Shown here piece by piece: positions 15,098 through 61,683 of a stretch of 64,000 bases of DNA. Position 1 is the first letter of the stretch; each line of letters starts with the position of its first letter. The notes under the pieces are model-generated. The model did no database searches, had not been told where the DNA came from, and worked only from the letters and a program-made list of their open reading frames with translations. The stretch spans positions 736,001 to 800,000 of the forward strand of contig JBMNLH010000001.1 in NCBI GenBank assembly GCA_050952625.1, in the 5' to 3' direction. The DNA is from Bacillota bacterium. GTDB taxonomy: Bacteria > Bacillota > Ch66 > Ch109. Made by a program: the position numbers and the translations under genes.

Positions 15098-15240
15098 CGT
15101 TTCCTTCGGGGACTGGTGAAATTCCGTACCGGCGGTGAGCTGATTCAGCGAGCCCGCGAGCCTACGATTATGATTAGTGGTGGGCTGATCTGGTGAAATT
15201 CCAGAGCCGACAGTGATAGTCTGGATGGGAGAAGGATAAA
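15098..15240 (+). ncRNA. FMN riboswitch (RFN element)
   Basis: CTTCGGGG..GGTGAAATTCC..ACCGGCGGT..AGCCCGCGAGC..GATCTGGTGAAATTCCAGAGCCGACAGT..AGTCTGGATGGGAGAAG; upstream of ribD. Confidence 0.96.
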
Positions 15241-52810: not shown

Positions 52811-53086
52811 AGTCGTTATTTGTCGGTCATACTCTTTTTTGGTCGTTGCTTGCCATTAAGGGTTTACCAATAGATTATAAGCTAAATATAATAGTTATAT
52901 TATGGTTGCCCCAAATTAAGTATACAGTATTTATGGTTTACAGGTATTTGTTTCGCGGTAAACATCTGATATTCTTATATTAAAATACTGAATAATTTTA
53001 TGCTTAGGTTAAAGAGCTAATAATTTTTTGGATAAATATAGGGAGTTTGACGGATATACACTCAACCTGGGTGATATATAAGCAAA

Positions 53087-53238
53087 CTGAGGTATTATTG
53101 AGAACACCGGAACATTTATTAGCTAACCAGCAGATACAGGATTGCAGCCGGGCAGATAGAGCGCGAGAATTGTCGTATTCTGCGCTAGGTAGGCCGGAGC
53201 TAATACCTGCCAAAAGTATTAGCTCCGGCTTTATTTTG
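53087..53238 (+). ncRNA. Putative cis-regulatory leader (Na+-riboswitch-like core plus terminator), copy 1
   Basis: Shares CCGRGCAGAYAGAGC-stem-GCTAGGTRGGCCGG and the terminator with 59826-59932; upstream of oadG-oadB. Confidence 0.6.
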
Positions 53239-53556
53239 TATACAAAAAGCTTGGTCTAGGGTCTATACACATTAATTAATATTTGATAAGCTGAAGACGG
53301 TGTTTGTCAATGGTTCACTGTGATTAATAATACTTAAAAACTATATATTTGAATTAATTAAAGATATTTTGTCGAATTTAATAGTTTGGGAAAGGGTGAT
53401 GCAGTAGATTAGGCGGGAGTAGTTTTATTTGTGTCTAGGAATTTATTTTCGACTTAATCCGTAAATTGTTGAGTGGCGAAGGTTGTTGAACTTTCTGAAT
53501 TTAATGGATTCCTTGAACAATCTAGTTCTTATAACAATAACCAGGCAGGGAGGGAT

Positions 53557-53694
53557 ATGATGTTTTCCGGTATAGAGTGGGATTTGGTTTGGCGTGTTTG
53601 CATTTATGGACAATTAAGCGTTTTTATCGTGCTGACATTATTGATGATTTCTGTATATGCCACTTCATTTATCATTAGTCGAATAACTGAGTGA
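53557..53694 (+). CDS. OadG-like small membrane subunit
   Basis: 45 aa, single TM helix (GQLSVFIVLTLLMISV), RBS GGGAGG, directly upstream of oadB. Confidence 0.7.
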   Translation: MMFSGIEWDLVWRVCIYGQLSVFIVLTLLMISVYATSFIISRITE

Positions 53695-53774
53695 ATTTTA
53701 TTATGTAATTTTTATTTTGTAATTACAAATTTTGAATTGATTAATACACTATACAAAATAGGGAGAGGCTAGGG

Positions 53775-54896
53775 ATGTTAGAGATTTTTCGGGAGTTGTT
53801 TGAGGCCAGCGGATTATCGGTGTTGACAATCAAACAGGTAATTATGTGGCTGATTGCTATGATTGTCATGTATTTAGCTATTAAAAAGGAATTTGAACCC
53901 TTGTTATTGCTGCCGATTGGCTTCGGGATCTTATTAGCTAATTTACCTAAGGCGCATCTTATGGAAGAAAACATGCTGCTCTGGTTTTTTTATAACTACG
54001 GAATTAAAACAGAAATAATCCCTTGTTTGATCTTTCTAGGACTCGGGGCTTTAACTGATTTTGGTCCGTTGATTTCCAATCCGAAGAATTTGCTTCTAGG
54101 AGCAGCTGCTCAGGGGGGAGTCTATATTACTTATTTTGGGGCCATCCTAGCCGGCTTCACCATCAAAGAAGCAGCCGGGATTGCCATAATTGGGGGAGCC
54201 GATGGACCGACGACCATCTATGTCCTGTCTTATTTGGCACCATACCTTATGGGGCCTTGTGCGGTGGCCGCTTATTCCTACATGGCGATGGTCCCGCTGA
54301 TTCAGCCCCCGATTGCCCGACTCCTGACAACCAGGAAGGAACGATTGATTCGGATGCCGATGTTACGGCCGGTTAGTAAAACAGAGAAAATTATTTTTCC
54401 CATTGTCTCCACGATTGTCATCGTTATCTTAGTGCCCACAGCTGCTCCTTTAATCGGTCTGTTTATGCTGGGCAACCTGTTTAGAGAATCTGGAGTGGTG
54501 GAACGGCTGAATGATGTAGCTCAGAACGCTTTATTGAATATTGTAACCGTCTTTTTGGGGGTAGCCGTTGGCGCAACGATGAGTGCCGAAACCTTCCTGG
54601 ATCCTCAGGTGCTGTTTATCTTTGCCCTGGGAATAGTAGCCTTTGCGGCGGCAACTGCCATGGGGATAATTTTTGCTAAGATCATGAACCTGTTCCTAAA
54701 GGAAAAAATCAACCCCTTAATTGGCGCGGCCGGGGTTTCAGCGGTACCGATGGCCGCTAGGACAATGCACCGGGTCGCTCAGGCAGAGGACAAAAAGAAT
54801 TATATTCTGATGCAAGCGATGGGGCCAAATGTCGCCGGGGTGATTGGAACCGCTGTGGCGGCCGGGATGTTTATTGCGATGTTAGCTGATAAGTAG
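53775..54896 (+). CDS. oadB: Sodium ion-translocating decarboxylase beta subunit
   Basis: FEPLLLLPIGFG, LLLGAAAQ, IIGGADGPT, VAAYSYMA.VP.IQPP, GVSAVPMAAR, AMGPNVAG. Confidence 0.93.
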   Translation: MLEIFRELFEASGLSVLTIKQVIMWLIAMIVMYLAIKKEFEPLLLLPIGFGILLANLPKAHLMEENMLLWFFYNYGIKTEIIPCLIFLGLGALTDFGPLISNPKNLLLGAAAQGGVYITYFGAILAGFTIKEAAGIAIIGGADGPTTIYVLSYLAPYLMGPCAVAAYSYMAMVPLIQPPIARLLTTRKERLIRMPMLRPVSKTEKIIFPIVSTIVIVILVPTAAPLIGLFMLGNLFRESGVVERLNDVAQNALLNIVTVFLGVAVGATMSAETFLDPQVLFIFALGIVAFAAATAMGIIFAKIMNLFLKEKINPLIGAAGVSAVPMAARTMHRVAQAEDKKNYILMQAMGPNVAGVIGTAVAAGMFIAMLADK

Positions 54897-55139: not shown

Positions 55140-55634
55140 CTAGGTTTTTTCTAGTTCTTTCTCCAGTATTTGTTTGAGACAAATAACTTGCTCTTGCTTA
55201 AAGGGGCCAATCAAGTGACTTTCTGCCGGTTCTCCCTGCAGCGTTAACCACAAACTTCCGCACCGGCTTAATTTTTCAAGGGGTGAGTGCCCTAGCTCTA
55301 TTCGCTTAATGTGCTCAAGCGGGATTGTTGTCCGAGTCATCTGCTTTCTAGGACAGATAAGGAGACTTTTGTTTGTCAGAATAACTATTTCCTGTGATTC
55401 TCGGTAGATGGTCAAAATAGCTAAAAGGATCACGATGCTAAAAATAATCCCAGAAAAATTCATAATCCAGGTGGTCCGGCTATTAATCAAAGAATTAGGG
55501 AGCCGGCTAGGCCAAATAAACCAGAATAATACAAGCGCAATTACTGCCAGGAGAGTTATTCCACCGGCAAGCAGATAATAACGGGAATCTCTTTTAAGGC
55601 TTACAATAACCTCTTGAGTATGCGGGCTCTTCAT
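55140..55634 (-). CDS. Membrane protein with bacterial PH-like domain
   Basis: Two TM helices, then ILTNKSLL...TIPLEHIKRIEL...SPLEK...GSL pattern. Confidence 0.65.
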   Translation of the reverse strand: MKSPHTQEVIVSLKRDSRYYLLAGGITLLAVIALVLFWFIWPSRLPNSLINSRTTWIMNFSGIIFSIVILLAILTIYRESQEIVILTNKSLLICPRKQMTRTTIPLEHIKRIELGHSPLEKLSRCGSLWLTLQGEPAESHLIGPFKQEQVICLKQILEKELEKT

Positions 55635-55645
55635 TAGGCTCCCCC

Positions 55646-56149
55646 CTATTGTACGTGAAATTGTCGCGCAGCTATATTTTCGTCTGCTCGGTAAATTCGG
55701 AGTAAGTATTGTCCCGGCGGCAGACCAGGAATGGTACCTAAAACATTTTGTTTTCCTGCCTCAACCGGTAGAGTGCAACTAAAAATGGGTGACGGTTGGT
55801 CTTTCGGGATATCCTGGGTTAAGTTGTGCAATTCAGCCGTCAACTCATTAACTCCGTAGCCTCCAAAACTTCTGACTGAAAAAAAGATCGGGCTGCCGGT
55901 CGGTAGTGGAGCGGAAGTGGTCCGTACCGTGGCCCGGGCGTGATCAGCTTCGGTTCCGATTAGAACAGCCGCCGGGTATTTTTTATCTTGCGGAATAGAT
56001 GTCGCCGGCTGGGCTGAATTCTTGTCAGATGGAACGCTACATCCCGTTAGGACAATACAGAGCATCGATATCAGGAGGTAGGTTCCAATAATTCTATAAT
56101 GGCCCTGTTTTTGACCGGGGTTGGTTAGCTTCACTTCAATCACTTCCAT
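55646..56149 (-). CDS. Hypothetical lipoprotein
   Basis: Hydrophobic stretch ending in lipobox LTGC; beta-rich C-terminus (LPPGQYLLRIY). Confidence 0.6.
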   Translation of the reverse strand: MEVIEVKLTNPGQKQGHYRIIGTYLLISMLCIVLTGCSVPSDKNSAQPATSIPQDKKYPAAVLIGTEADHARATVRTTSAPLPTGSPIFFSVRSFGGYGVNELTAELHNLTQDIPKDQPSPIFSCTLPVEAGKQNVLGTIPGLPPGQYLLRIYRADENIAARQFHVQ

Positions 56150-56373: not shown

Positions 56374-56814
56374 ATGCTGAAAAAAATTTTAGTGCCAACT
56401 GATGGCTCAAAGAGTGCAATCAAAGCGGTTACTTATGCTAGACAAATGCTGCAGGAAGGAATAGCTGAAAAAATAACCCTTTTACACGTTGGTCCAGCAA
56501 TTGAAGAGCGATGGGGGTATTATGGTTTAGCCAATGCCGATGTAGAGTTGAGGTATCAATGCGTTTTAAGTGATGAAGGAAAACGAATATTGCGCATTTC
56601 CAAGAGACCATTTGAAGAAGCCGGTTTGCCAGTAGAAGTTATTCATCTGTGTGGTGATTCGGCTGAAACTATTATCAGTTACGCCGAAGAAAACAAGTTT
56701 GACCTAATAGTTATCGGCAGCCGTGGTTTGAATAAACTGGCAGAGTTATTGTTGGGCAGTGTTTGTGATCGGGTCATTCGGCTGTCTACGGTCCCGGTTT
56801 TAATCGTAAGGTAA
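56374..56814 (+). CDS. Universal stress protein
   Basis: KKILVPTDGS, DLIVIGSRG...LLGSV...VPVLIVR. Confidence 0.93.
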   Translation: MLKKILVPTDGSKSAIKAVTYARQMLQEGIAEKITLLHVGPAIEERWGYYGLANADVELRYQCVLSDEGKRILRISKRPFEEAGLPVEVIHLCGDSAETIISYAEENKFDLIVIGSRGLNKLAELLLGSVCDRVIRLSTVPVLIVR

Positions 56815-57451: not shown

Positions 57452-59437
57452 ATGTCAGAAAACTTACAAATGGTATTATTGTACGGGGCACCGGCTGTGG
57501 GAATTTTTACTTTATTATTTGCTTGGATGCAAATCCTAAAGGTAAAACGCGAGCAGCCAGGCAATGCCCGCATGCAGGAAATTGCCGGGGCTATTCACAG
57601 TGGGGCCATGGCCTTTTTACGTCGTGAATATACGACTTTGCTTGCCTTTATAGCGGTGCTTTTTTTAATCTTAGCCTTAAAAATTGATCTGCGAACCGCG
57701 ATTTGCTTTATGGTCGGGGCCTTTTGCTCAATGACTGCGGGCTTTATTGGGATGACAGTTGCGACTATGGCTAATGTGCGGACCGCTAATGCGGCGCAGC
57801 ACTCACAGAACCGGGCTTTAGGGATTGCCTTTTCCGGGGGATCCGTGATGGGAATGTGCGTAGCTGGACTAGGTCTGCTCGGTTTAGGTGTTCTTTATCT
57901 GATTTATAAGGACCCGAATATTGTGAATGGTTTTGCGCTGGGCGGGAGCTCAATCGCTCTGTTTGCCCGGGTTGGCGGCGGAATATATACTAAAGCAGCC
58001 GATGTCGGGGCTGACCTAGTGGGTAAGGTTGAGGCCGGTATTCCGGAAGACGATCCCCGCAACCCGGCCGTGATTGCCGACAACGTAGGAGACAATGTCG
58101 GTGATGTGGCTGGCATGGGGGCTGACCTTTTCGAATCATTTGTCGGCTCAATTATTGCCTCGATGGTGTTGGGGATAACCCTTTTCTCCGCGGGTCAGCA
58201 GTTTAATGCAGTCATGTTTCCTTTGATGATTGCGGTGGCTGGTACCTTGGCCTCGATTTTGGGAACCTTCTTTGTTCGTTCGGATGAAAAGTCTAGCCCA
58301 CAGAAGGCTTTGAACTATGGAACTTTTGGGAGTGCCGCTTTAGTTATTCTCTTTTCTTACTTTGCGTCTAAGCAATTAATGGGTGAGATAAGCTACTTCT
58401 GGGCGGTGTTAGCCGGGATTCTTACCGGGACCGCGGTAGGTTTAATCACCGAATACTATACCTCCGGTGATTATAAGCCGGTTAAGGGGATTGCCGAACA
58501 ATCACAAACTGGACCGGCTACAACGATTATTTCCGGGATGGCGGTCGGGATGATGAGTACGGCTTTGCCGATTCTGGTTATTGCCGCTGGTATTTTAGTC
58601 GCCTTTAAATTTGCCGGCCTTTATGGAATCGCTCTCGCAGCGGTCGGGATGCTATCGACCACGGCCATGGTGGTTTCGGTTGATGCCTACGGACCAATTG
58701 CCGATAATGCCGGTGGTATTGCCGAAATGGCGGAGATGGATCCCGGTGTCCGCAAAATAACCGACCGGCTGGATGCAGTTGGCAATACAACAGCGGCGAT
58801 TGGGAAGGGATTTGCCATTGGTTCAGCGGCCCTCACCGCTCTAGCCCTATTTTCTGCCTTTACAAGTTCAGTAGGTCTTGCCAGCATTAGTCTTCTAGAT
58901 CCGCAGGTCATGGTTGGTCTATTGATTGGCGGGATGCTGCCCTTCTTGTTCTGCGCTTTAACCATGAGTGCCGTGGGTCGAGCGGCTTATCGGATGATTG
59001 AGGAGGTTCGGCGCCAATTCAAGTCCATCCCAGGCTTAATGGAAGGTAAAGCCAAACCTGACTATGCCCATTGTGTCGATATTAGTACCAGCGCAGCCAT
59101 TAAAGAAATGGTTATTCCCGGACTGATGGCTGTAGTTATTCCGCTGCTGGTCGGGATGGTTCTGGGCAAGGAGGCCCTTGGCGGGCTATTAGCCGGAGCG
59201 TTGGTCGCGGGGGTTCTATTGGCGGTAATGATGGCCAATGCCGGTGGGGCCTGGGATAATGCCAAGAAGTATATTGAGAGTGGCAATTACGGGGGAAAAG
59301 GGACCCCAACTCACGCTGCAGCCGTAGTGGGAGACACGGTGGGGGATCCTTTCAAGGATACCTCTGGCCCTTCGTTAAACATTTTGATAAAACTAATGTC
59401 TATTGTATCTCTCGTTTTTGCTCCACTATTTATGTAG
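57452..59437 (+). CDS. hppA: Membrane-bound K+-dependent pyrophosphatase, probably Na+-translocating
   Basis: [50 protein letters not shown] (Ala = K+-dependent), [14 protein letters not shown]. Confidence 0.95.
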
Positions 59438-59486
59438 CAAACCTTCATTACAAAACCATCATTAAAATTAAAAATCATGTTTGTTG

Positions 59487-59525
59487 AGCCCAGTATTTAA
59501 GATGCTAAATACTGGGTTGTTTTTT
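59487..59525 (+). terminator. Terminator of hppA
   Basis: CCCAGTATTTA / TAAATACTGGG stem plus T run. Confidence 0.75.
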
Positions 59526-59825
59526 ATCGTAGCCATGATTGTTTTTTGTTGGTTTGCAATAAGAGGCAAAAAGGGGCATCAGATAGACATAACTTATGAA
59601 TATTAACTATATCACTGTTATCTGACGATAATCAGCACTTTGCTTTTTGCGTGGCAAAAGATATACTCACGATTAGAGCTGGGTAGATTTAGCTGAAAAT
59701 TTAGATGCAATGATACCAACGGCAACACAGAAAGGTAACCAAGCAAAAAGGGCTTTTCCTGAGAAACTAGCAGGCACGACGTTAAAACGGCGAAGTGTGG
59801 GCAGTTAGGTTAGGTGACAGTGTCG

Positions 59826-59932
59826 TGAGGTATATCAGCGATGAGTTTATGAACCGAGCAGACAGAGCGAGCGAAAATCCTGTTTTCAGGTGCTAGGTGG
59901 GCCGGTGCTAATAGTATTAGCACCGGTTTTTT
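59826..59932 (+). ncRNA. Putative cis-regulatory leader (Na+-riboswitch-like core plus terminator), copy 2
   Basis: TGAGGT..ATCAGC, CCGAGCAGACAGAGC..GCTAGGTGGGCCGGTGCTAATA.TATTAGCACCGG-T6. Confidence 0.6.
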
Positions 59933-60017
59933 ATGCTAAAATAAAGTGAATATTATTTTTTACTTTTGTTCTACCGCAAGTGAATTTCGGTAGATTGATA
60001 GAGAGCGAGGGGTAACC

Positions 60018-60426
60018 TTGTCATTGCGGGTGAAGATTGAAGGGGAGATTTCCCGAGCGATGACTAAATACTACCGGGAGATGTTAGGGAAGGGACCAGA
60101 GGAGACAAAAGTATATATTATTGAGGATATGGTACTGGTCCGTTTTCGTGGCATCCTCACTAGAAAAGAGCAGCAATTAGTCAGAACTCAACGGGGCTGT
60201 GAATTGGTGAAAGAGATGCGTCAGGTTCTCCGCGATTCAAACATAGATGAGGAAGAAAGAATTATTACGGATTGTACCGGTTTTTCAGGTTATCAGCAGT
60301 CACTGCGACTTAAGTACGAAAACCGGCGAGATGGTTATAATCTTTATCATGGATCAAAATGTTGGTCGGATATTCAGTGGAAAGTCCTGCGGAAAAGAAA
60401 TGGTTGTATCCCGGCATCCGGTTTAA
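60018..60426 (+). pseudogene. DUF2294 (MpsC-like) gene with a frameshift in a T5 run
   Basis: N-terminus EISRAMTKYYREMLGKGPE..KVYIIEDMVLVRFRGILT..EQ.L; the family C-terminus (VISSHCDLSTKTGEMVIIFIM) is in the next frame after 60281-60285. Confidence 0.75.
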
Positions 60427-60561
60427 GCCGGAACCTTTTTATTATTAAAAGTATATAGTATATAGGAATTCAGAACGCCCCGGGGCCATTGTGCAGATTG
60501 GAAAGGTCATGAGAATAAAAAGCCGGCCTAGTTGCTTGTTGACTAATTCGTAAAAGGGTGG

Positions 60562-61683
60562 GTGCTGTCACACATGGACCAACTTCTAATAGGCTTTCTG
60601 GGGCTAAGCTGGAAACACTTTGTTATGTTTGGGATTGGGTTTCTTTTGATTTACCTGGCGATTGCCAAGGAATATGAACCGGTTCTTCTTTTGCCCATTG
60701 GTTTTGGAGCTTTATTGTGCAACATACCGTTTTCCTCGGCCGTCGGACCTGAGGGACCATTGACTATCTTGCACCATGCTGGAATAGTAACCGAGCTTTT
60801 CCCTTGCCTTATTTTTGTCGCGGTAGGGGCAATGTGTGATTTTTCCCCTATGCTAAAAAATCCTGTCCTGATGTTATTCGGAGCAGCGGCTCAGTTTGGC
60901 ATTTTTGCTACTATTATATTTGCTGCCTGCCTTGGTTTTAACATTAATGAAGCGGCTTCAATTGGGATAATTGGGGCGGCTGATGGGCCGACAACGATTT
61001 ATGTGGCGACTAAGCTTGCTCCGGATCTATTGGCTCCCTTATCAGTCGCGGCTTATTCTTACATGTCACTGGTGCCAATTATCCAGCCGCCGGTGATTAA
61101 AGCTTTAACTACAAAGAAAGAACGCTCATTATTGATGCCAGTTAAAGAAGATATCCCAGTCTCCCGGATGGTTAAGATTCTCTTTCCTATTGTCGTAACT
61201 CTAGTCGCGGGAATAATTGCTCCAATCAGTGTTGCCCTAGTAGGGATGCTTATGTTTGGGAATTTAATCAAGGAATGTGGCGTTGTCGAACGGCTTTCCC
61301 GGGCCTCTCAAGAGGAACTGGCTAACCTTGTTACCCTTCTTTTAGGGATAACCATTGGGGCTACAATGACCGCCGAACAGTTTTTAAATGTTAAAACTAT
61401 TATGGTAATAGGCATGGGGATCGTTGCGTTTGTTTTTGATACTGCCGGTGGAGTTTTATTTGCTAAAGGGTTGAATCTATTGTTAAAAGAAAAAATTAAC
61501 CCTATGATTGGGGCCTGTGGTATTTCTGCCTTTCCGATGTCCGCCCGGGTGATTGCGAAAATGGCTCTGGCTGAGAATAAGCGAAACTATATCATCATGC
61601 ATGCGGTGGGAGCTAATGTATCCGGGCAATTAGGTTCAATTATCGCCGGGGGTCTGGTTTTGGCTATTGTGGTTGGCATATAG
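60562..61683 (+). CDS. oadB: Sodium ion-translocating decarboxylase beta subunit (divergent paralog)
   Basis: YEPVLLLPIGFG, FGAAAQFG, IIGAADGPT, VAAYSYMSLVPIIQPP, GISAFPMSAR, AVGANVSGQ. Confidence 0.92.
   Translation: MLSHMDQLLIGFLGLSWKHFVMFGIGFLLIYLAIAKEYEPVLLLPIGFGALLCNIPFSSAVGPEGPLTILHHAGIVTELFPCLIFVAVGAMCDFSPMLKNPVLMLFGAAAQFGIFATIIFAACLGFNINEAASIGIIGAADGPTTIYVATKLAPDLLAPLSVAAYSYMSLVPIIQPPVIKALTTKKERSLLMPVKEDIPVSRMVKILFPIVVTLVAGIIAPISVALVGMLMFGNLIKECGVVERLSRASQEELANLVTLLLGITIGATMTAEQFLNVKTIMVIGMGIVAFVFDTAGGVLFAKGLNLLLKEKINPMIGACGISAFPMSARVIAKMALAENKRNYIIMHAVGANVSGQLGSIIAGGLVLAIVVGI

Follow-up and report, generated by a model that had tools for sequence, protein, structure and literature searches.

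A candidate antiterminator hairpin ahead of two oadB loci and its association with mpsC (DUF2294) genes

Two oadB loci in a 64-kb window (the whole stretch of bacterial DNA that we analyzed, 64,000 nucleotides) each carry a leader in which a hairpin and an intrinsic terminator draw on the same strand. Helix P1 of the hairpin and the terminator are mutually exclusive, and the structure is conserved with covariation. Sequence comparison indicates that the copies belong, as a divergent subtype, to a more extensive RNA family that is absent from Rfam 15, and elements of this family co-occur with, and lie adjacent to, mpsC genes. On balance, we favor a factor-stabilized antiterminator hairpin at each locus, with MpsC as the likeliest factor because the RNA family is physically tied to mpsC (DUF2294) genes. 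We infer that MpsC would bind the RNA, and the signal and the direction of regulation given below are proposed on the same footing. The features of the two loci are:

53087..53145, + strand: modules (a) and (b) of copy 1, outside the conserved element
53146..53202, + strand: putative antiterminator hairpin domain, copy 1 (R3 41.4 bits, fold, covariation)
53191..53237, + strand: intrinsic terminator, copy 1 (stem 53191-53206 with 53216-53231, U-rich tail to 53237)
53557..53694, + strand: small membrane protein resembling an oadG-type subunit, judged from its translation; first gene after copy 1, ~320 nt downstream
53775..54896, + strand: oadB-type Na+-translocating decarboxylase beta subunit, copy 1 (PF03977 511 bits, TIGR01109 505 bits)
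57452..59437, + strand: Na+-translocating membrane pyrophosphatase, upstream of copy 2 (NF001960 1034.7 bits, cut-off 546)
59826..59851, + strand: modules (a) and (b) of copy 2, outside the conserved element
59852..59910, + strand: putative antiterminator hairpin domain, copy 2 (R3 45.8 bits, fold)
59899..59932, + strand: intrinsic terminator, copy 2 (14-pair stem 59899-59929, T run to 59932; terminator scan and folds)
60018..60458, + strand: mpsC (DUF2294, PF10057), first gene after copy 2, read in two frames
60562..61683, + strand: oadB-type Na+-translocating decarboxylase beta subunit, copy 2 (PF03977 497 bits, TIGR01109 430 bits)

Direct reading of the two leaders agrees with the preliminary description that four modules, (a) to (d), recur in the same order at both loci. 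Module (a) opens with TGAGGT at 53087 and 59826 and contains ACCAGC in copy 1 and ATCAGC in copy 2; module (b) is 16 nt long in copy 1 and 14 nt in copy 2, and the two sequences are unrelated. Module (c) starts with CCGGGCAGATAGAGC (copy 1) or CCGAGCAGACAGAGC (copy 2), continues with a hairpin that differs between the copies, and ends after this variable hairpin with GCTAGGTAGG or GCTAGGTGGG, respectively. Module (d) reads CCGG-A/T-GCTAATA ... TATTAGC-T/A-CCGG in both copies, followed by a T run, and the compensatory A-T/T-A swap noted earlier in the terminator is present (pair 72-99). In the folds, the copy 1 terminator is a 16-pair stem followed by UUUAUUUU; that of copy 2 has 14 pairs and was called by the terminator scan. 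A promoter scan placed a promoter-like site, GTGATA-16-TATTAT, at 53071-53098.

The pattern GCAGAYAGAGC-N5-35-GCTAGGTRGG has exactly two matches in the whole 2.9-Mb genome, and its reversed control has none. Covariance model R3 (58 positions, 19 pairs), whose training set included both window copies, likewise finds two matches and no others on both strands of the entire window with filters off (45.8 and 41.4 bits). The conserved unit is ~58 nt long, spanning 53146-53202 in copy 1 and 59852-59910 in copy 2. The element boundaries given earlier need correction: the element starts at the CCG just 5' of GCAG (53148 and 59853) and not at TGAGGT, and beyond the genus modules (a) and (b) show no conservation. 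A conserved core was rightly recognized; the imperfect P1 ascribed to it was not borne out, as the core folds as a continuous rod.

The order along this rod is P1, an AG x AG/GG loop, P1a, an AG x AG loop, P2 and a variable distal hairpin. In the window type, P1 pairs CCG(R)GC with GCCGG, P1a pairs AY with GU, and P2 pairs AGCG(C) with (G)YGCU. P1 of copy 1 joins C53148, C53149, G53150, G53152 and C53153 (G53151 is bulged) to G53193-G53197; the loops set AG 53154-55 against AG 53191-92 and AG 53158-59 against AG 53187-88, with P1a (A53156 U53157 with G53189 U53190) between them, and P2 (53160-53164 with 53182-53186) carries the distal hairpin 53166-53181. P1 of copy 2 joins A59853-G59856, G59858 and C59859 (A59857 is bulged) to G59901-U59906; here AG 59860-61 faces GG 59899-900 and AG 59864-65 faces AG 59895-96, P1a is A59862 C59863 with G59897 U59898, and P2 is 59866-59869 with 59891-59894, the distal hairpin lying within 59870-59890. 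In the sister species U59891 is replaced by C, so that a G-U pair in P2 of copy 2 becomes G-C. Across 23 elements the first purine loop of the rod, which has three small loops in all, is 2x2 or 3x3.

The ON-switch overlap proposed earlier holds: the bases that form the P1 3' strand (53193-53197 in copy 1) also form the foot of the 5' arm of the terminator. When the 5' part of copy 1 is folded alone, the rod has a predicted energy of -21.6 kcal/mol (RNAfold); at full length (-41.6 kcal/mol) the terminator is formed and P1 is lost. Copy 2 behaves in the same way (-17.5 kcal/mol for the 5' part, -30.5 kcal/mol for the full length, terminator formed and P1 lost). The part before the 3' arm of the terminator folds into the same rod in 23 of 23 elements. 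At full length, 21 of them, both window copies included, form the terminator and lose helix P1; in the remaining two (L089 and G002_L065), the P1 region stays partly paired.

Covariation was assessed on two alignments, of which A10 leans towards the model; for both, the structure was derived from the same sequences, which favors the structure in the comparison with slid partners. In A8, a MAFFT alignment of 23 elements with 19 pairs, 77.0% of cells are paired, compared with 61.8% in shuffles and 24-46% with slid partners, and both sides have changed in 74 cells, compared with 33.4 +/- 4.6 in shuffles (0 of 500 reach 74). In A10, which was fitted to the model and holds 33 elements, 80.0% of cells are paired (63.8% in shuffles), both sides have changed in 112 cells (43.4 in shuffles), and compensatory change occurs at 18 of the 19 pairs. 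RNAalifold on A8 recovers the terminator, with compensatory change in 10 of its 12 pairs. The best evidence for competition between P1 and the terminator is that the shared strand changes, from lineage to lineage, along with the two strands that it pairs with. In the order P1 5' strand, shared strand, terminator 3' arm, the sequences are CCG..GC, GCCGG and CCGGC in the window type, UUGGC, GCCAA and UUGGC in genus g121, and UUGGA, UCCAA and UUGGA in the main class. The leaders are what the preliminary description took them for, structured cis-acting elements under selection on structure: the paired core is kept by compensatory change while loops and flanks diverge.

Close relatives delimit the window type. 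Both copies are present in the sister species, with a few informative changes. Orthologs of both loci also occur in G004, a genome from a different genus within the family; there the copy-1 type precedes oadG-oadB, and copy 2 lies ahead of mpsC, its start separated by 2 nt from the stop codon of a Na+-pyrophosphatase gene. The spacer after copy 1 shows nothing conserved between genera (115 of 368 columns identical). On metagenome contig L037 the order is pyrophosphatase, element, mpsC, oadG, oadB; on L060 a consensus TTGACA-17-TATAAT promoter is followed ~25 nt on by the element, its terminator and htpX. The strict pattern matched 14 stretches on genome contigs, four of them in Syntrophomonadaceae bacterium records and the other ten in unrelated records without an R1 match, and 31 stretches on metagenome contigs, two of which (L037 and L060) have an R1 match.

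The check suggested at the outset, a covariance model from homologs, was carried out with R2 and R3, which recover elements in other families. R2, which was made from eight window-type sequences only, matched two elements further afield: a divergent copy at L065, in genus g2, and a copy in an unrelated family. In the latter lineage, which belongs to another order, the element begins 3-5 nt after the mpsC stop codon; 11 of 13 genomes from that order have it, and the 12th species of the unrelated-family genus also has it (R3, 57.2 bits). On the 30 best mpsC loci, R2 gave a match at E<1 adjoining mpsC in seven, and reading the flanks of mpsC loci revealed the same motif directly 3' of mpsC in further loci. 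Three loci matched by R1 or R2 (L017, L066 and L068) were dropped, as their alignments cover the terminator only, and four candidates seen by eye (L087, L099, L106 and L108; R3 <=19.8 bits) were left out of every count. Members outside the R3 training set score 31.5-52.5 bits.

The family consensus is YUGGMAGRC ... AAGGG-hairpin-CRGUU ... GYARKCCRR, followed by a terminator. The window subtype has the bulged P1 CCG(R)GC and the 3' side AGGURGGCCGG. The inner loop AAGGG ... CRG between P2 and the distal hairpin is present in genus g121 and the main class and absent from the window copies and their orthologs in G004 and L037; for this reason we file the window copies as a variant subtype, and the missing loop weighs against the preferred reading. 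A search of the literature on DUF2294, riboswitch candidates, oxaloacetate decarboxylase, sbtA and bicarbonate riboswitches found no description of this RNA.

The element keeps close company with mpsC. PF10057 occurs in 125 of 401 sampled genomes of the phylum. R3 gave 15 matches in 11 of 151 genomes of a phylum sample, all 11 of them mpsC-positive, and 16 matches in 11 of 67 further mpsC-positive genomes; at the same settings, 67 mpsC-negative genomes gave none. The comparison of 11/67 with 0/67 yields a one-sided Fisher P of 3.1e-4, with the proviso that the genomes are kin and the counts overstate independence. As 56 of the 67 mpsC-positive genomes have no R3 match, either the pairing with mpsC is not universal or R3 is blind to other subtypes. 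In G002, a genome that is 94% complete, a divergent element is present and mpsC was not found. Both observations count against the link.

The element occurs in at least 17 families, ahead of unrelated operons, and an intact mpsC (DUF2294) is its direct neighbor in 23 of 35 loci. The ORF directly upstream is mpsC in 19 loci, in 18 of which it ends 1-24 nt before the element, and the first downstream ORF is mpsC in five, one locus being counted on both sides. Broken mpsC remnants lie at two further loci. Nine of the 35 are orphan sites, among them copy 1, before oadG-oadB; copy 2 adjoins a same-strand mpsC (PF10057) 85 nt downstream. At one locus (L120, in G024) mpsC lies on the opposite strand, convergent and 142 nt off, which is neither the "before" nor the "after" layout. 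Three layouts occur, namely regulator gene-terminator-structural genes, a site before the regulator gene, and additional orphan sites, and all three are known from protein antitermination systems.

The RNA and the protein also appear to have diverged together. In a tree built from 45 MpsC domains, 7 changes of the label "element adjacent" are required, compared with 14.9 in shuffles (0 of 500), a clustering that is inflated by near relatives. Paralogs in one genome (G173, G381) fall in MpsC clades with and without the element, and the RNA subtypes track three element-bearing MpsC clades, as judged by eye. G173 also holds a second, weaker R3 match (28.8 bits; L134 498-549, - strand), ~1 kb from its mpsC-adjacent element. 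At L086, a c-di-AMP riboswitch (1934-2065, - strand, 104.8 bits) lies directly upstream of mpsC and the attenuator follows mpsC, an arrangement of two switches in series.

Beyond the window, the downstream genes include Sbt_1 (SbtA) bicarbonate-type permeases, once with a P-II protein; PurE, PurK, archaeal-type PEP carboxylase, GTP-PEPCK and biotin carboxylase; CO_dh/POR-type 2-oxoacid:ferredoxin oxidoreductases and an aldehyde:ferredoxin oxidoreductase; NuoE/NuoF-like proteins with a molybdopterin enzyme; and a CitMHS-type transporter, an MFS transporter, DUF1275 and htpX. In the window's family they are oadG-oadB and an HMGL-like carboxyltransferase. DUF4914 is the downstream gene in two lineages (L113 and L133, genus g121 and G240). 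The common thread of the controlled genes is CO2/bicarbonate and carboxyl-group chemistry, to which the window's family adds Na+-pumping decarboxylases. In genus g121, a 141-aa ORF without an assigned family precedes DUF4914. An HtpX-type M48 protease gene lies downstream of the element at L060 (1206-2099), and a gene that is HtpX-type by its N-terminal sequence only lies upstream of mpsC at L115 (2068-2901, - strand).

The Na+ transport context pointed out in the preliminary description is confirmed: the neighboring genes encode the beta subunits of two Na+-pump decarboxylases and, in addition, a pyrophosphatase that translocates Na+. The oadB genes are paralogs of each other. The product of 53557..53694 has no Pfam or NCBIfam match; small ORFs like it also precede oadB in L006 and L037. 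The mpsC gene after copy 2 is split between frames, with profile positions 4-87 at 60033-60284 and 84-111 at 60274-60357; relative to the intact gene of the sister species it has an extra T near 60281, which is a frameshift or an assembly error. If real, the frameshift would leave this genome without an intact factor, and it speaks against the MpsC reading. In another lineage (L067 1078-1510, from G135 of genus g121), the first ~20 mpsC residues are in another frame, and the gene is intact in G156.

We propose the following mechanism. Soon after transcription starts, a ~58-nt rod (P1, 2x2 purine loops, P1a, P2 and the distal hairpin) could form, whose P1 3' strand (GCCGG) would double as the base of a strong intrinsic terminator. 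With no factor bound, the terminator would win and the transcript would stop before oadG-oadB (copy 1) or mpsC-oadB (copy 2). A factor that keeps the hairpin closed would cost the terminator its bottom 5-6 pairs beside the U tract and allow read-through. This factor would most likely be MpsC, possibly loaded with a signal of inorganic-carbon (CO2/bicarbonate) or Na+ status, and its mode of action may resemble that of the HutP or BglG/LicT antiterminators.

HutP of the Bacillus subtilis hut operon is a small regulator encoded by the first gene, thought to prevent formation of a terminator ahead of the structural genes. The main class shares this layout, with mpsC, then the element and terminator, then the target genes. 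The system here differs in that its RNA forms a rod containing 2x2 purine loops and in that the predicted MpsC model gave no structural match to HutP or to any RNA-binding protein. The RAT sites of the BglG/SacY/LicT/GlcT family are short imperfect hairpins with internal loops that overlap the 5' arm of a terminator and need a bound protein. Like them, the element lies before the regulator's own gene (copy 2, mpsC) and before other operons (copy 1, oadGB). Domains of the BglG/SacY/LicT/GlcT family are not in the genes here, where the neighbor is DUF2294, and RAT targets serve sugar uptake, whereas those of the element are carboxylation, inorganic-carbon and Na+-pump genes.

The components of the proposed system would be a 60-nt RNA and a protein of 120-140 residues. 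The predicted MpsC model (pLDDT 87.9) has a duplicated helix-plus-hairpin unit. Foldseek against the PDB found no RNA-binding relative of this model (best E 0.02; TRAPP Bet3/TPC6, YslB and H-NOX-like proteins), VIA-align gave a best Z of 6.6, and the results of both searches are within the noise range; the MpsC sequence matched no solved structure below E 0.18. In Staphylococcus aureus, deletion of mpsC is described as giving no phenotype, and the role of the gene is left open, in the excerpted text of the report (PMC6689103).

A wider reading, which we put forward tentatively and with doubt slightly outweighing belief, is that MpsC/DUF2294, a small and widespread protein, may be an RNA-binding antiterminator that senses inorganic carbon, or Na+ coupled to it, and may form with the hairpin-terminator element an undescribed regulon that in anaerobic bacteria serves bicarbonate uptake, carboxylases, decarboxylases and Na+-pumping decarboxylases. 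The window would then hold a co-diverged protein-RNA subtype recruited to oadGB. If this is true, DUF2294/MpsC gains a function, and inorganic-carbon and carboxylation genes gain a dedicated RNA-level control; our literature search found no published riboswitch or attenuator for such genes.

The preliminary description had read module (c) as Na+-I-like and joined to a second input, module (a). We give next to no credence to a variant or tandem Na+-I (DUF1646) or Li+ riboswitch of this kind, attractive as it is with neighbors in Na+ bioenergetics. Excerpts of the published description place Na+-I riboswitches upstream of oxaloacetate decarboxylase genes, and describe them as genetic ON switches whose sensor overlaps the terminator with its 3' part (PMC9337991); the window element shares both this gene context and this design. 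In the same excerpts, Na+-I has two stems, P1 with conserved nucleotides at its base and P2 with conserved nucleotides in its loop, and P2 and a terminator compete (PMC9337991). The window element departs from this architecture in being a single rod with a terminal loop that differs in every lineage. Li+-I is described, again in excerpt, as resembling Na+-I, and Li+-II as having no similarity to Li+-I (PMC9646797). Module (c) has no match to the Na+-I covariance model, as far as the Rfam 15 library holds it. At gathering score, Rfam 15 matched neither leader locus in the whole window and returned an FMN riboswitch elsewhere; with permissive filters at E<=10, the segments 52850-53800 and 59440-60100 gave chance-level eukaryotic and viral families only, and the Li+-I and Li+-II (nhaA-I, nhaA-II) models, as far as the library holds them, gave no match at that threshold. 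Across eight related loci at E<=0.1, the sole match was the c-di-AMP riboswitch of L086, which is not the element. Module (a) is not conserved: it is absent from the orthologous loci of G004 and contigs L037 and L060, and in the sister species ACCAGC of copy 1 has become ACCATC with a 6-nt insertion and ATCAGC of copy 2 has become ATTAGC. A pairing of module (a) with GCUAGGU was rejected, as the sister-species changes break it. An outer helix seen by hand (purine strand AGAYANAG with the U tail) was dropped because a U tract offers pairing to purine runs of every kind and the register varies between lineages. If our reading is right, it corrects the filing of these leaders as a Na+ riboswitch, which is attractive but wrong. 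A direct-sensing riboswitch of a new class is another matter. In such a switch, the rod itself would bind Na+, bicarbonate or a carboxylation-linked metabolite, and mpsC would merely be the commonest co-transcribed gene. We regard this as unlikely, though it is the main rival: the architecture is that of known ON riboswitches ending in a terminator, the short helices adjoin unpaired purines that are strictly conserved, the genes have a coherent theme (Sbt_1, PurE/PurK, PEP carboxylase, PEPCK, POR-type enzymes, biotin carboxylase, oadB), and oxaloacetate decarboxylase genes have, in the excerpts cited, a Na+-I precedent (PMC9337991). Yet in the R3 surveys the element was found only in mpsC-positive genomes, even though in 18 loci it lies 1-24 nt after the mpsC stop codon and so does not control mpsC. 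A direct sensor would be expected to keep a constant ligand pocket, but the window subtype has lost the inner loop and the RNA subtypes follow MpsC clades. The element is, moreover, small and rod-like, and no junction or pseudoknot was detected in it.

Two further explanations dispense with a dedicated sensor. The leaders could be a stand-alone small RNA, or a plain terminator with flanks left over from a segmental duplication of oadB, and no switch at all. The distant start codons (~320 nt after copy 1 and ~85 nt after copy 2), the paralogy of the oadB genes and the cover by RNA-library contigs, which include the copy 2 leader in four runs and the following bins in two (uncovered bins not being evidence), all fit this explanation. 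It is nonetheless improbable, since flanks, loops and spacer have diverged and the paired core has been kept with compensatory changes, the same element stands before unrelated operons in at least 17 families, and the way in which the shared strand varies jointly with the P1 5' strand and the terminator 3' arm would be difficult to account for if the two helices did not compete. Alternatively, attenuation could be coupled to translation: a ribosome that reaches the end of the upstream ORF (mpsC, or in G004 the pyrophosphatase gene) would cover the P1 5' strand and so choose between hairpin and terminator, and no dedicated factor would be needed. This mechanism suits the 18 loci in which a stop codon precedes the element by 1-24 nt, and copy 2 of G004, where the stop codon is 2 nt from P1; we nevertheless judge it highly improbable, because in both window copies, L037 and L060 the distance to any upstream ORF is 95 to >300 nt, the element in L060 has a consensus promoter of its own ~25 nt upstream, and coupling gives no reason for the upstream ORF to be mpsC. 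We therefore retain the factor-stabilized hairpin, with MpsC as the likeliest factor, as our preferred reading.

RNA-library (metatranscriptome) contigs from three studies cover 59685-59903 and begin at 59685-59715. The copy 2 leader, module (a) included, is accordingly represented in RNA libraries by sequence that starts upstream of module (a), with the qualification that such contigs cannot show starts, ends, levels or termination and may include DNA carry-over. The interval between the oadB loci holds a gene for a universal stress protein at 56374-56814 (+ strand), and two adjacent ORFs at 55140-56149 (- strand) encode proteins of 164 and 167 aa that have no clear family and a weak bPH_2 match. 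The FMN riboswitch of the window, at 15098-15240 (+ strand), is full length and scores 119.5 bits, compared with a gathering score of 66.2.
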